From NCBI RefSeq assembly GCF_050320075.1, contig NZ_CP190018.1: a stretch of 64,000 nucleotides of DNA; one strand, written 5' to 3'. Positions 18,996 to 23,571 of the stretch are shown here, in pieces (position 1 is the first letter of the stretch; each line of letters starts with the position of its first letter). Origin of the DNA: Escherichia coli (GTDB lineage Bacteria > Pseudomonadota > Gammaproteobacteria > Enterobacterales > Enterobacteriaceae). The notes under the pieces are model-generated. The model saw nothing but the letters and a program-made list of their open reading frames with translations. It was not told the origin of the DNA and ran no database searches. The position numbers were made by a program, and so were the translations under genes.

Positions 18996-20735
18996 ATGAA
19001 AATGGGAAAAATTGCAGTTACTCCTAATAATGATAAAGCAGCCAGCCACTCTAAAGATGAAAATTTAGCCACAAATACAATTAAGAAAAACGTAAAACCT
19101 AAATATGGCGATGCGGCATTTTTAGAGTACACTCGACTAATAGTTAACCACCCGAATTATTTTGGAATGCCAGATCCCTTTGGGGAAAAAGGTGAGATTC
19201 AATGGGAAGCTCCATCAAATAGGGCATCGGGGAAATTTAAACACACTCATCAACGGCGCTATGAATGGTGGAAAAATAAAGCCAGAAGTATTGGGATAGA
19301 CCCTGACACTGAAAAAGCATGGATTAGTAAAACAGCTAAACTAATTCATCCACTTGGAGTTAAACCATGCAAGAAATGCGGTAAAGAAATGGAATTATCT
19401 TACTCCTACCCAAATGAGCATTTCTTTTCTCGGGTTAGGAAACTTAATTATATAGATGAGACTTTTGAGCTATCTCAAAATGAACACATAGTTGATTTGT
19501 TGACTCGTTTAGATGATAGATTTGGTGAAAGAATATATTTAGATTTACCACATTTATTTTCTACAAAATCCATCACGATTCCAGATATTTCAAGCAATCT
19601 CGAAGCATGGATTGAGTATCTAAAAGAACAATACATACCTCAAGAATCACGTATGCTTAGCCCTGGAGCCATGGCAAATCCTCCAGATCGTTTTGATGGA
19701 TTTCATTCATTTAACCGCTGTTGTCGCTCTATTGCTGATAAAGGAAGGACCAAAGAAAATCTTAAATCTTATGTTACTGACAGAAGAGTTTTCGAATATT
19801 GGGTGGATGGTGATTGGGTAGCGGCAGACAGGCTAATGGGCCAAGTTAGAACAAATAATATATTTATTAACGAGGAATGTTTGAATGCCGGAAATGGTGG
19901 TTTACATCCAACTCCTTGCCAAGCAGATCACATTGGCCCAATCTCACTAGGGTTTTCCCATCGCCCACAATTTCAACTACTTTGCAAATCATGTAATAGT
20001 GCCAAAAACAATCGTATGTATTTAAGTGATATAATCTCTTTATTAGAAGCTGAGAATGAAGGTCATACGGTTATTTCATGGTTCGCAGAAGAAGTATGGA
20101 ATCGACTAAAACACTCTGTAGATGATAGTGAAAAAGCCTTAAGACTAAGTAAAATACTACGTGATAATAGACATACATATATGAATCTTCTTAAAAAAAT
20201 AATGGATGAAGGTTATTATACTTTCCTTGCAAGTCTTTTACATCTTGAGGTAGCCAATTATAACCCAATATTTGAGGGATTATGCATTTCAAATCATTTA
20301 ACTCATTATAAATCATTAAAAAAAATAAAACGTGAATCAAAATATGCTGCTGTGCAAAAAACAAGACGAATCAGAATAGCATTTACTTCATTGAATGATT
20401 ATCATAGAAAAGAAAATCGGAACGCATTTATTGTATCAAATGAATTATCTGAGAAGTTTTTCTCTGAAGCTATGGATAATTTAAAATCATTAAGTGAAAT
20501 TACATCTTGCTTAGATGAAAAAATATCCGGAATAATATCTGAGAATTCAGATTCAAAAAATGAATTTCGAACAATCATTACAGATCTACGAGAAATAGTG
20601 ACAAACAATAAAGAAAAATTCAACTTGATATTAAAATATCTAATATCAGGGATGAGCGAAATAGGAAAAGAACTGGAATCATATTGGGAAAATGATCGTT
20701 ATGTTCGCTCAATCCCAGAAGAATTTATAGAGTAA
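18996..20735 (+). CDS. Putative HNH-type restriction endonuclease (type IIS-like)
   Basis: 579 aa, AT-rich; HNH-like signature (CQADHIGP...CKSCNSAKNN) plus upstream CKKCGK; convergent with two methyltransferase genes; GGAG ribosome-binding site. Confidence 0.55.
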   Translation: MKMGKIAVTPNNDKAASHSKDENLATNTIKKNVKPKYGDAAFLEYTRLIVNHPNYFGMPDPFGEKGEIQWEAPSNRASGKFKHTHQRRYEWWKNKARSIGIDPDTEKAWISKTAKLIHPLGVKPCKKCGKEMELSYSYPNEHFFSRVRKLNYIDETFELSQNEHIVDLLTRLDDRFGERIYLDLPHLFSTKSITIPDISSNLEAWIEYLKEQYIPQESRMLSPGAMANPPDRFDGFHSFNRCCRSIADKGRTKENLKSYVTDRRVFEYWVDGDWVAADRLMGQVRTNNIFINEECLNAGNGGLHPTPCQADHIGPISLGFSHRPQFQLLCKSCNSAKNNRMYLSDIISLLEAENEGHTVISWFAEEVWNRLKHSVDDSEKALRLSKILRDNRHTYMNLLKKIMDEGYYTFLASLLHLEVANYNPIFEGLCISNHLTHYKSLKKIKRESKYAAVQKTRRIRIAFTSLNDYHRKENRNAFIVSNELSEKFFSEAMDNLKSLSEITSCLDEKISGIISENSDSKNEFRTIITDLREIVTNNKEKFNLILKYLISGMSEIGKELESYWENDRYVRSIPEEFIE

Positions 20736-20747
20736 GACATAGCCCTC

Positions 20748-21938
20748 TTATAAAGAGGGCTTTATATTCCTTTCATAATATTCTGAAGGAGTAATATTAC
20801 CTCTCATGAATAATTGATAGTCATTTTCGGGGTGATGGATATAATATTTACCACTTCCATCTTCACCATGTTGCAAAGGAGGCAGATCAGATAATGCATC
20901 CTTTACAGATACCCAAGATTCCTTATCTTCTGTTAATTTTTGTGGAGGTTCAATTGAAAATAAAGGGTCGTTTGAACCAACCAATATAACCCTTTTTCGG
21001 CGCTGAGGGATTGCATAATGTTCAGAGTTTAATATCCATCCATTCATAGTTTTCATGGTTGATGAGAATTCTTCTTTGACTCTTTCAAAGACCTTACCTT
21101 TTTCCATATTCAACAAACCAGCAACATTTTCAAAAATAAAACCGTTTGGTTTTATCTCATTTAAGAGAGATTTATAATGCATAAAAAGTGAATTTCTTGG
21201 ATCATCCATTGTTCTGGCATTTCCTGCCGTAGAAAATCCCTGGCATGGGGGTCCACCAAGTATCCATAATTGTTTATCAAAATATAATTTCTTAAATCCT
21301 GATATTTTATCTGCTATTTTTGAAAAAGTTTCATTATCAGAAATGCTGCCACATAAAACTTCTTTGTGAACATTGTTTGAATATGTTTGTAGATATTTTT
21401 CTTCAATATCATTCGCCAATAATGGAGTCCATCCAGCCCATTTGAATCCTAGTCCCAGCCCTCCAGCTCCGGAAAATAAATCGATATAATAACCAGTATT
21501 ACCTATCGCCTTCTCTATTTCTTTCGCAATCAGAAAAGCTAAAAATGGGGGCACTGCATTACCGATTTGGGTATTAATTGCTGTTTGACCTCCGAAGAAA
21601 ATAAAATCATCCGGGAACGATTGTAGTCTTGCAGCTTCTCTCTGGGATAGAACACGATCTTGCTCATAGTGAATATGGCAACCATTCCCAGGTCGGTTAA
21701 AATATGTATTGATAGTATATGCAGGCATATCTGGAAGTAATCTACCGTAGTATGTTGAACGGCTTCCTTTTCCTTGTGCATAACTATCCCTAATTTGCTC
21801 TATTCTTTTAGACGGTACATCTAAAGGAATATTTTTCCAGTTGCCACCTGGCGGTACTGAGTTAACAATCATCATATCCAATTCACTTAGCTTTGCTGCC
21901 TTGTGATTGGGAATCATAAATGTTTCACTTTTAGTCAT
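20748..21938 (-). CDS. DNA cytosine-5 methyltransferase with apparently permuted motif order
   Basis: Motif I DLFSGAGGLGLGF, IV GGPPCQGFS, VI FENV, VIII QRRKRV; motif IX/X-like block (LQSFPDDF...IGNAVPP) lies N-terminal to motif I. Confidence 0.85.
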   Translation of the reverse strand: MTKSETFMIPNHKAAKLSELDMMIVNSVPPGGNWKNIPLDVPSKRIEQIRDSYAQGKGSRSTYYGRLLPDMPAYTINTYFNRPGNGCHIHYEQDRVLSQREAARLQSFPDDFIFFGGQTAINTQIGNAVPPFLAFLIAKEIEKAIGNTGYYIDLFSGAGGLGLGFKWAGWTPLLANDIEEKYLQTYSNNVHKEVLCGSISDNETFSKIADKISGFKKLYFDKQLWILGGPPCQGFSTAGNARTMDDPRNSLFMHYKSLLNEIKPNGFIFENVAGLLNMEKGKVFERVKEEFSSTMKTMNGWILNSEHYAIPQRRKRVILVGSNDPLFSIEPPQKLTEDKESWVSVKDALSDLPPLQHGEDGSGKYYIHHPENDYQLFMRGNITPSEYYERNIKPSL

Positions 21939-23571
21939 AATGTTGAAAAATCCTCAATAAACTTTCTTTTTCAGCTAACTCAATCTTATCAAATGAAGAC
22001 AGAAGCTTATTAAATTCATTCAAATCCAATTTGTAAATATTTTTGGCAACATAAGCCTCAATTTTCAACTCAGCATCACAACATCCCTCTATGCAAGAAA
22101 TCACAAGTTGTTTTAATTCAGAATGTTGTAATAATATTTTTTCAGACGGTATTGCAGTTTTTCGTAAGGCTGACAATGATACATGACCAGTAGCTAAAAA
22201 GCTTCTTAATTGAAATTCAAAACAAAGGGAGTTTATAATACCAAGCAAACTAAAGAGCGAATCTTGCGAACCACTTTTATAATAGACCACCCCTAATGAA
22301 TTCCCTGCCAAAGAGTTAGGAGGTATTATCGTTGCAATCATTCGCCTTTTTTGACTCGGGCGTGAAATGTCACGCCATGCAATCCTTACGAAATTAGAAT
22401 TGGATAGAACCTTATCAATTTTTTTCGTTATTCTTAAGCTCTTCTCATTATGAAAATTATACCTCCCAATCATTTTTCCTTTAATGAATAATAATCCGCC
22501 GCCACTTTTTTGTGTCCAGTCACTACTACCAGTTTCATCTATTTCTCTTCCTGCCCATATCTCTCCATTTTTTTCCAGACTACCCCATGTTGGGTATCCC
22601 TCTTGCAGCTTTCTTAACAAATGAACGGCATGAACACCTTGAGATACCGGAATGCTAAGATATTGAGAATCTATACTAGACAAATCAAAAAAACCTAGTG
22701 ATTTAATATTTAAGTTTTTATCATACACACTAAGTTGAATATTATCATTAAGGGATTCACCTTTATTAAAAATAAAAGAACATGAAGAAACATCAGCACC
22801 GCCGAATAATTTAGCCTCAGCTGGATAATAATTTATGCAATCAATCCTCCCTGAATTAAAAAACTTTTCACGTAATATGTACGATTGTTCATCTGCGAAA
22901 AAAGATGCAGGCATAACTATAGCTACCAATCCATTTTTATTACATATTTCTAAGCTAAGTTCTGCACCAACACGTGAAAGATTAGTCCCCCACCCAGCAA
23001 ATTTACGCTTCGGCTGAGAATATGGCAATACTCTTGACAAATAATCATCAAACTCACGAAGAGAGTCTATATACATCGATTTCATAGATGGTTCAAAAAA
23101 ATCGAGCTCTCTAGAATCTGGTTTTATATTCTCCCAAGGCGGATTGGTTATAACACAATCAAAATAATCAACATATTTTTTAAATTCATAAAAAACATCA
23201 CTATTTTTTATAGTAATGTTAATATTTGCACCTGCTAACTTAAGTTCAGACAACGCATTTTTAGCATAAGTGAGGCCTGTATTTTCTATATCGAACAGAT
23301 AAACATTCCACTCTACATCTGGAAAACCATTTATCATCCATTGTTTAATAAGCAATGTAATAAGTCGACCATCCCCTGAAAATGGATCTGCGACATTATA
23401 ACTTTTTTTATCACAGGAATTTATCAATGGTAATAACTTCTCTATCATCAAAAGAGCTATTTTTGGATCTGTATAGTATTTACCTGTCGCTTTTTTAGTG
23501 AATTTTGTTGTCTCGTCCAAGGACAGTGAATTAATTAAATGGATATGTTTCATGTAAAATATCTCTTCCAT
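21931..23571 (-). CDS. N6-adenine DNA methyltransferase (gamma-class, NPPW)
   Basis: Motif I DPFSGDGRL and catalytic NPPW; stop overlaps the start of the C5-methyltransferase gene. Confidence 0.8.
   Translation of the reverse strand: MEEIFYMKHIHLINSLSLDETTKFTKKATGKYYTDPKIALLMIEKLLPLINSCDKKSYNVADPFSGDGRLITLLIKQWMINGFPDVEWNVYLFDIENTGLTYAKNALSELKLAGANINITIKNSDVFYEFKKYVDYFDCVITNPPWENIKPDSRELDFFEPSMKSMYIDSLREFDDYLSRVLPYSQPKRKFAGWGTNLSRVGAELSLEICNKNGLVAIVMPASFFADEQSYILREKFFNSGRIDCINYYPAEAKLFGGADVSSCSFIFNKGESLNDNIQLSVYDKNLNIKSLGFFDLSSIDSQYLSIPVSQGVHAVHLLRKLQEGYPTWGSLEKNGEIWAGREIDETGSSDWTQKSGGGLLFIKGKMIGRYNFHNEKSLRITKKIDKVLSNSNFVRIAWRDISRPSQKRRMIATIIPPNSLAGNSLGVVYYKSGSQDSLFSLLGIINSLCFEFQLRSFLATGHVSLSALRKTAIPSEKILLQHSELKQLVISCIEGCCDAELKIEAYVAKNIYKLDLNEFNKLLSSFDKIELAEKESLLRIFQHYD

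Follow-up and report, generated by a model that had tools for sequence, protein, structure and literature searches.

The locus raises the question of whether an AT-rich block in an Escherichia coli genome is a type IIS restriction-modification (R-M) system and, if so, which one. We analyzed it within a stretch of 64,000 nucleotides, which we call the window. According to the ORF calls, positions 18996-23571 hold three intact genes, with exactly the coordinates and lengths given in an earlier note on this DNA: a 579-aa endonuclease (R) on the plus strand and, on the minus strand, a 396-aa m5C methyltransferase (M2) and a 546-aa m6A methyltransferase (M1). The features are listed in Table 1. We conclude that the block is very probably the Eco31I type IIS R-M system, which recognizes GGTCTC (1/5) and is made of M1, M2, and R. 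The present analysis shows the integrity of the genes, their family membership, a near-complete match to the sequences published for the Eco31I methyltransferases, and the distribution in E. coli. We take from the literature which site is recognized, which bases are methylated, where the DNA is cut, and that m6A is formed in vivo.

Table 1. Positions in the window of the genes, domains, and sites of the Eco31I block and its borders.
Feature	Coordinates	Strand	Basis
Intergenic leader upstream of R, GC 0.257	18887..18995	+	Sequence inspection
R.Eco31I, type IIS restriction endonuclease, 579 aa	18996..20735	+	Pfam, NCBIfam, PADLOC
HNH (beta-beta-alpha-metal) nuclease stretch of R, residues 294-341	19875..20018	+	Pfam HNH E=0.003, HNH_5 E=0.0056
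GC-rich hairpin, 9 bp, AGCCCTCTT-ATA-AAGAGGGCT	20741..20761		Terminator scan
M2.Eco31I, C5-cytosine methyltransferase, 396 aa	20748..21938	-	Pfam, NCBIfam, motifs
M1.Eco31I, N6-adenine methyltransferase, 546 aa	21931..23571	-	NCBIfam, Pfam, motifs
Low-GC (0.311) right-hand cassette end	23572..23880		GC and identity profile
Promoter-like site of the M1-M2 operon: TTGAGT, 17 nt, TATAAT	23583..23611	-	Promoter scan, 10/12 matches
75-aa ORF, sequence ending in ...YNHERSHLALKYKTPDEV...	23786-24013	-	

The endonuclease matches Pfam PF09665 (RE_Alw26IDE, E=4.9e-188) over residues 44-559, which correspond to positions 1-505 of the 507 in the model. It also scores 663.1 bits against NCBIfam TIGR02986 (cut-off 443.85, model positions 2-425 of 425) and 780.7 bits against the PADLOC model REase_II. 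The HNH stretch lies inside the full-length RE_Alw26IDE match and contains D311-H312, C330/C333, N334, and N338; its putative catalytic residues are assigned by inspection only. Pfam gave no second nuclease domain in R besides this one. Hence, the earlier description of R as an Eco31I-type protein with a single HNH-like motif agrees with the one HNH stretch and the matches to TIGR02986 and RE_Alw26IDE. Mutagenesis places Eco31I itself in the HNH superfamily (PMC2441816). A search of the PDB with the sequence of R returned nothing at E<=1, and therefore no solved relative of this protein is detectable by sequence.

The same note had placed m5C and m6A methyltransferases beside the endonuclease, and the family matches confirm both. 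M1 scores 662.3 bits against NCBIfam TIGR02987 (cut-off 353.5), matches the Pfam domains N6_Mtase and Eco57I, and carries motif I (DPFSGDG) at residue 62 and motif IV (NPPW) at residue 143; PGAP takes the second ATG, at 23553, as its start, which gives 540 aa. M2 matches TIGR00675 (175.7 bits) and PF00145 (E=7.2e-43 and 2.2e-15), the latter in two pieces whose order is swapped, with model positions 234-324 at residues 50-143 and model positions 4-226 at residues 152-383. Its motifs are circularly permuted in the same manner, since motifs IX/X (QSFPDDF at 106, GNAVPP at 126) precede motif I (DLFSGAGG at 153), motif IV (PPCQGFS at 230, with the catalytic C232), and motif VI (ENV at 270). The circular permutation of M2.Eco31I is already published.

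The methyltransferases tie the block to Eco31I. Their lengths, 546 aa (1641 bp) for M1 and 396 aa (1191 bp) for M2, are those of the published M1.Eco31I and M2.Eco31I (PMC10810934). Exact 5-mers from the published gene cover 538 of the 546 residues of M1, and the 8 residues left in gaps (six single residues and one adjacent pair) are at machine-reading errors in the published sequence text. For M2, the published gene was translated from the lines quoted, and exact 6-mers of this translation cover 353 of the 396 residues; every quoted part matches, and the remaining ~43 residues fall where the supplementary text is corrupted or quoted incompletely. Residues N127 and Q233 of M2 agree with the published N127A/Q233A mutant (PMC3526304), and C232 with the active-site residue given by Forde 2015 (PMC4659465). 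The exact sequence of R is present in the protein collection, where its names include a UniRef cluster (representative Q8RNY7_ECOLX), and it is the RefSeq protein WP_000781649.1 in both of the genomes for which we read the annotation, Nissle 1917 and YZLc1-3.

The block is therefore very probably no mere relative of Eco31I but that very system, known from E. coli RFL31 and catalogued as EcoMI in the ST131 strain EC958. It shares with them the same three genes, the convergent layout, the methyltransferase lengths, the residue numbering, and the same island, with an McrBC-like pair alongside. We detected no difference, the sequences being identical at every comparable methyltransferase residue (538 in M1 and 353 in M2), and the identity of R is supported indirectly by the UniRef name. 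Eco31I of RFL31 is reportedly the subject of Butkus 1985, Bitinaite 1992 and 2002, and Jakubauskas 2007 and 2008. In EC958, the methyltransferases are 100% identical to those of Eco31I, lie on GI-leuX beside McrBC, and are transcribed, with the cognate endonuclease encoded on the opposite strand (Forde 2015, PMC4659465). SMRT sequencing of this strain found 100% of the GAGACC sites to be m6A-methylated, while m5C was only predicted (PMC4659465). The tags EC958_0008-0012 do not map by their numbering to the RefSeq record, the first 30 kb of which run from thrL to ileS. Nothing in the block is new, as the Eco31I genes, the HNH site, and the permuted methyltransferase are published and ST131 is already known to have the activity.

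The models TIGR02986, TIGR02987, and PF09665 cover enzymes of three overlapping specificities, and family scores alone therefore do not fix the site. The block could in principle encode another member of the Alw26I/Eco31I/Esp3I family, recognizing GTCTC (Alw26I/BsmAI) or CGTCTC (Esp3I/BsmBI). The methyltransferases stand against this, as they equal the published Eco31I enzymes in length, in numbering, and at every comparable residue. Moreover, Alw26I and Esp3I carry both methyltransferase activities fused in a single m6A-m5C polypeptide (Bitinaite 1992, as cited by Forde 2015), whereas those of the window are separate: the PADLOC model PDLC03237 (1036 positions) is matched by M1 at 114-640 and by M2 at 655-981, i.e., by each protein over one half only. 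Finally, the GAGACC methylation of EC958 was attributed to a methyltransferase reported to be 100% identical to M1.Eco31I (PMC4659465). We thus give another specificity almost no credence and retain GGTCTC as the site of the block.

Several known systems resemble Eco31I without being the one found here. BsaI, the GGTCTC(1/5) isoschizomer of Geobacillus stearothermophilus, also has a separate M1 (m6A) and a separate, circularly permuted M2 (m5C), of 395 aa in M2.BsaI vs 396 aa in the window (PMC10810934). Its source is another bacterium, and we assign the window proteins to Eco31I and not to BsaI. In Alw26I and Esp3I, as in BsmAI, BsmBI, and BcoDI, which recognize GTCTC or CGTCTC, R and the m6A methyltransferase belong to the same NCBIfam and Pfam families, and the m5C domain shows the same permutation. 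M.BssHII is another C5-cytosine methyltransferase in which circular permutation puts motifs IX-X before I-VIII, but it is part of an unrelated R-M system whose site is palindromic, outside any pair of m6A and m5C enzymes.

[quoted passage not shown] Since one modifies the bottom strand and the other the top, both strands of the asymmetric site would be protected. This supports the type IIS arrangement proposed earlier, in which an asymmetric site has one methylase per strand, as the m6A/m5C pair of Eco31I. The endonuclease would bind unmethylated GGTCTC and, through its one HNH active site, cleave the top strand 1 nt and the bottom strand 5 nt downstream of the site, so that incoming phage or plasmid DNA would be destroyed. 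In vitro, purified M2.Eco31I prevents cleavage by BsaI/Eco31I (PMC10810934; PMC3526304).

Among 5426 complete E. coli genomes, 634 (~1 in 9), including Nissle 1917, carry the cassette DNA at an identity of at least 99%, and PGAP already annotates it in them; the identical DNA is assigned an endonuclease and a methyltransferase of the Alw26I/Eco31I/Esp3I family. The gene order, with an M1-M2 operon convergent with R, is the same in Nissle 1917 and YZLc1-3. In the three IS-disrupted variants that we inspected, the insertion (IS1A, ISEc12, or ISEc23) always interrupts R and leaves the two methyltransferases intact. Such disruption of R only is the pattern expected of a live nuclease, where loss of R is tolerated and loss of methylation is not, and these independent knock-outs in R, but not in M, speak for an active R wherever the gene is whole. 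Two E. coli records labeled as plasmids also carry the block (one of 834 kb; one IncF, in which the ORF calls are fragmentary and the chromosomal flanks are the same), and we judged them uninformative on mobility.

These variants also bear on a second alternative, namely that the block is Eco31I by sequence, yet provides methylation only because R is silent or not expressed in this strain. Loss of R is indeed common in the population, our scan gave no full sigma-70 promoter upstream of R, and the transcription data of Forde 2015 concern the methyltransferases only (PMC4659465). However, the R ORF is intact here and encodes the same protein as in YZLc1-3 and Nissle 1917, all 634 matching genomes are nearly identical over the cassette, and the repeated inactivation of R elsewhere suggests activity where it is intact. 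The leader of R also has a TATAAT (18931-18936) and a good GGAG ribosome-binding site (18987-18990) 5 nt ahead of the ATG. The promoter can only be proposed, because the consensus scan gave no -35 element to go with it in the leader, and R may also be transcribed by read-through from the McrBC-like genes, which lie on its strand. Altogether, we regard a methylation-only system as very improbable and infer that the Eco31I copy of the source strain is expressed and active.

M1 and M2 overlap by 8 nt and therefore form one operon. Its promoter-like site has a TG preceding the -10 element, which ends 11 nt ahead of the first ATG. It is a consensus match alone, and such sites are no more frequent in the region than in shuffles. 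The operon converges on R and shares with it the hairpin lying between R and M2, which overlaps the stop codon of M2. This hairpin is likely to act as a bidirectional terminator, although terminator-like sites in the region are not above their count in shuffles.

Carriers of the cassette, such as Nissle 1917, are expected to restrict unmethylated DNA that contains GGTCTC sites and to be resistant to BsaI/Eco31I in their own DNA. Eco31I has been sold as an enzyme since the 1980s, and GGTCTC is the BsaI site of Golden Gate cloning. The practical value of the assignment is thus in annotation and strain handling, for transformation and Golden Gate work, with little to offer as a discovery.

The surroundings are consistent with the recent horizontal acquisition suggested in the earlier note. 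As it had claimed, the block is richer in AT than its neighbors, with a GC content of 0.342 vs 0.466 and 0.478 in the flanking 10 kb and 0.471 in the whole window, where no other stretch of 4.6 kb has a lower GC. We place the cassette, as a low-GC insert, on the leuX-associated genomic island of E. coli, which was acquired horizontally. A tRNA scan of the whole window found none, which places the leuX attachment site outside it, and an Rfam scan of 15000-25000 gave no match. On the right, the cassette ends around position 23880, where GC climbs to 0.465, identity to Nissle 1917 drops from 99.97% to 92.8%, and the truncated remains of an IS3-family transposase start. The 75-aa ORF, labeled hypothetical protein by PGAP, ends in what we take to be the C-terminal end of an IS3-type transposase; PGAP annotates an IS3-family pseudogene farther right (~24148-24453). 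We also considered a controller (C) protein upstream of M1, but this ORF is the sole small one annotated there and reads as the transposase remnant, not as a regulator.

On the left, the block adjoins a McrB/McrC-like pair directly upstream (15532-18886), the McrBC-like module that the earlier note had placed beside it. R is on the same strand as the McrC-like gene and starts 109 nt after it, and with no full promoter detected in between, the two could be co-transcribed. The allele of the pair that is at least 99% identical occurs in 633 genomes, about the same number as the 634 carriers of Eco31I. One may speculate that the cassette and the divergent pair are not chance neighbors and work as one co-selected defense unit, which we hold to be unlikely. 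If true, phages whose base modification lets them evade Eco31I would be dealt with by the type IV module. As a separate observation, the McrBC-like pair is far from the McrBC of K-12.

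Judged by sequence, the three genes of the cassette, an endonuclease (R), a C5-cytosine methyltransferase (M2) and an N6-adenine methyltransferase (M1), are the already known type IIS system Eco31I (site GGTCTC, complement GAGACC). Their positions and lengths are exactly those of the earlier note, whose type IIS reading of an endonuclease with m5C and m6A methyltransferases is supported by family scores and by the match with Eco31I. The REBASE methyltransferases of this system, expressed in a 2024 paper, measure 1191 bp and 396 aa (M2.Eco31I) and 1641 bp and 546 aa (M1.Eco31I) (PMC10810934), the same lengths as in the window. 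We compared them through the codon-optimised genes printed in the supplement of PMC10810934, using short words translated in three frames because this machine-read text contains insertions and deletions. Exact 5-mers cover 538 of the 546 residues of M1, the 8 others being six single positions and one adjacent pair at which two printed copies of the gene disagree. For M2, all quoted parts of the gene match (353/396 residues covered). The residues changed in the published M2.Eco31I mutant N127A/Q233A (PMC3526304) and the active-site C232 (PMC4659465) coincide with N127, Q233 and C232 in the window.

The identification of R with R.Eco31I is well supported, albeit by indirect evidence. The protein is a full-length match to Pfam RE_Alw26IDE (E=4.9e-188) and scores 663.1 bits against NCBIfam TIGR02986, "Alw26I/Eco31I/Esp3I family type II restriction endonuclease" (cut-off 443.85), while PADLOC gives type II endonuclease and methyltransferase matches at full length. 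The exact 579-aa sequence is found in the protein collection, where the listed names include a UniRef cluster with representative Q8RNY7_ECOLX. The single HNH-like motif proposed earlier corresponds to one weak HNH/HNH_5 stretch in Pfam (residues 294-341), and Eco31I was assigned to the HNH superfamily by mutagenesis (PMC2441816).

M1 scores 662.3 bits (cut-off 353.5) against TIGR02987, the adenine methyltransferase family paired with TIGR02986, and has the motifs DPFSGDG (residue 62) and NPPW (143). M2, a C5-cytosine methyltransferase, matches Pfam PF00145 in two pieces of swapped order (model 234-324 at residues 50-143, model 4-226 at residues 152-383), so motifs IX/X (QSFPDDF at 106, GNAVPP at 126) come ahead of motifs I (DLFSGAGG at 153), IV (PPCQGFS at 230) and VI (ENV at 270). 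M2.Eco31I is indeed counted among the natural circularly permuted C5-methyltransferases (PMC5944983; PMC3526304). One PADLOC profile of 1036 positions covers M1 and then M2, as expected from the fusion of the two methyltransferases in Alw26I and Esp3I, whereas here they are separate.

The M1 and M2 genes overlap by 8 nt and converge with R, a terminator scan placing a GC-rich 9-bp hairpin between R and M2 (table). Upstream of M1, the end of the best promoter-like -10 element is separated from the first ATG (23571) by just 11 nt, a gap into which no Shine-Dalgarno sequence fits (window 23553-23611, minus strand). PGAP places the M1 start at the second ATG (23553), giving 540 aa, whereas the length in REBASE and in published work is 546 aa. 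The cassette lacks a controller protein; a small ORF located 5' of M1 reads as an IS3-family transposase remnant. The AT-richness noticed earlier holds: GC is 0.342 in the block, the lowest among 4.6-kb stretches of the window, against 0.471 in the whole window, 0.466 and 0.478 in the flanking 10 kb on each side, and 0.457 and 0.451 in the neighbouring McrB-like and McrC-like genes. The low-GC segment extends from ~18887 to ~23880.

Features of the cassette and its surroundings (window positions unless a locus is named)
Feature	Position	Strand	Remark
R ORF	18996-20735	+	579 aa
M2 ORF	20748-21938	-	396 aa
M1 ORF	21931-23571	-	546 aa
TATAAT	18931-18936	+	5' of R, sequence read directly
GGAG	18987-18990	+	5' of R, sequence read directly
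Promoter-like TTGAGT-17-TATAAT, TG upstream	23611-23583	-	5' of M1, consensus scan
Hairpin	20741-20761		
IS-disrupted R copies	L005 1501-4017; L006 1501-5828; L007 1501-5790		loci in other E. coli records; correspond to window 18996-20735
GGTCTC/GAGACC sites	1866, 6989, 33484, 35836, 37952, 43105, 51602, 58262		
McrBC-like pair	15532-18886	+	691 and 428 aa
ISCro1 (tnpA, tnpB, transposase)	~7463-10078	-	IS66 family
IS3-family transposase remnants	23786-24456	-	
Run of small genes	~25050-31800	-	YZLc1-3 annotation
Antirestriction protein	~27464-27949	-	annotated
"Restriction endonuclease"	~35635-36513	+	annotated, 293 aa
H-NS family protein	~38270-38710	+	

The 4576-bp block occurs at ≥99% identity in 634 of the 5426 complete E. 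coli genomes, chromosomal in every case; Nissle 1917 is one carrier, and E. coli YZLc1-3 is 99.998% identical to the window (43.6 kb compared). PGAP labels its genes as Alw26I/Eco31I/Esp3I family endonuclease and methyltransferase, plus dcm. The same system was described in ST131 strain EC958 as M1/M2.EcoMI by Forde et al. 2015 (PMC4659465). According to them, the two methyltransferases have the same amino-acid sequences as their Eco31I counterparts (100% identity), the cognate endonuclease is encoded on the other strand, McrBC lies directly upstream, and the system is located on GI-leuX. A 156-kb IncF "plasmid" record (L010, CP088711.1 11231-15779) carries the cassette at 99.0% identity with its chromosomal flanks. 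Its fragmentary ORF calls point to poor assembly accuracy or segment misassignment, and not to a truly plasmid-borne copy.

From the literature, M1 would act on the bottom strand, at the adenine of GAGACC, and M2 on the top strand, where its target is the inner cytosine of GGTCTC. Where a site is unmethylated, R would use its one HNH centre to cleave 1 and 5 nt downstream of it. In EC958, the M1 transcript lies above the dam level and GAGACC adenine methylation is 100% by SMRT (PMC4659465). We infer that the cassette is expressed in the window's strain. The three cassettes that we opened, each interrupted independently, carry IS1A, ISEc12 and ISEc23, each within the R gene, and both methyltransferase genes retain their RefSeq protein accessions. 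Insertion in R with M1 and M2 intact is the asymmetry expected of an active restriction-modification system, and argues indirectly that R is a functioning nuclease. Two more matches (H4 and H7) appear, from their feature lists, to have the same pattern. The window has 8 GGTCTC/GAGACC sites, against 19.3 ± 4.3 in dinucleotide-preserving shuffles of the window alone (at least 8 in 100/100 shuffles). Scanning the whole window placed none within the cassette.

The McrBC-like module reported beside the block is present, with McrB-like and McrC-like proteins encoded directly upstream. Forde et al. call the EC958 pair "the same type IV system" as that of K-12 (PMC4659465), an equation that the NCBIfam scores do not support: against the K-12 equivalogs, the McrB-like protein reaches 143.5 bits (cut-off 637) and the McrC-like protein 98.2 bits (cut-off 338). 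The McrB-like AAA_5 domain is interrupted by ~125 residues, and no Pfam family matches the N-terminal ~230 residues of the protein. Of 5426 genomes, 1056 have the pair, falling into four identity bands; only the band at ≥99%, with 633 genomes, agrees in number with the Eco31I carriers. Other alleles adjoin other cargo, namely a phosphorothioate-DNA-binding endonuclease and a type I-like M/S pair in W150 and IS remnants in TOE17, and the pair and the Eco31I cassette are therefore separable modules of one defence island.

ISCro1 adjoins a GRP-family sugar transporter gene of 858 nt (1005 nt in Nissle 1917). The element appears to be missing from Nissle 1917, because the alignment with that genome stops at 7432 and restarts at 10128. 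IS3-family remnants adjoin the right end of the cassette. A recombination or mosaic boundary of the island is marked at ~23880 by a fall in identity to Nissle 1917 from 99.97% to ~92.8%. The small genes that follow (DUF957, DUF5983, CbtA toxin and YeeU antitoxin, DUF987, JAB/RadC-like, DUF932, GTPase) form a block that we take to be typical of E. coli integrative islands; the annotated antirestriction protein lies only ~4 kb from the cassette. Low-GC patches occur at 32-34 kb (0.34-0.35) and 38-39 kb (0.375), and the annotated "restriction endonuclease" and the H-NS family protein lie amid IS256 remnants.
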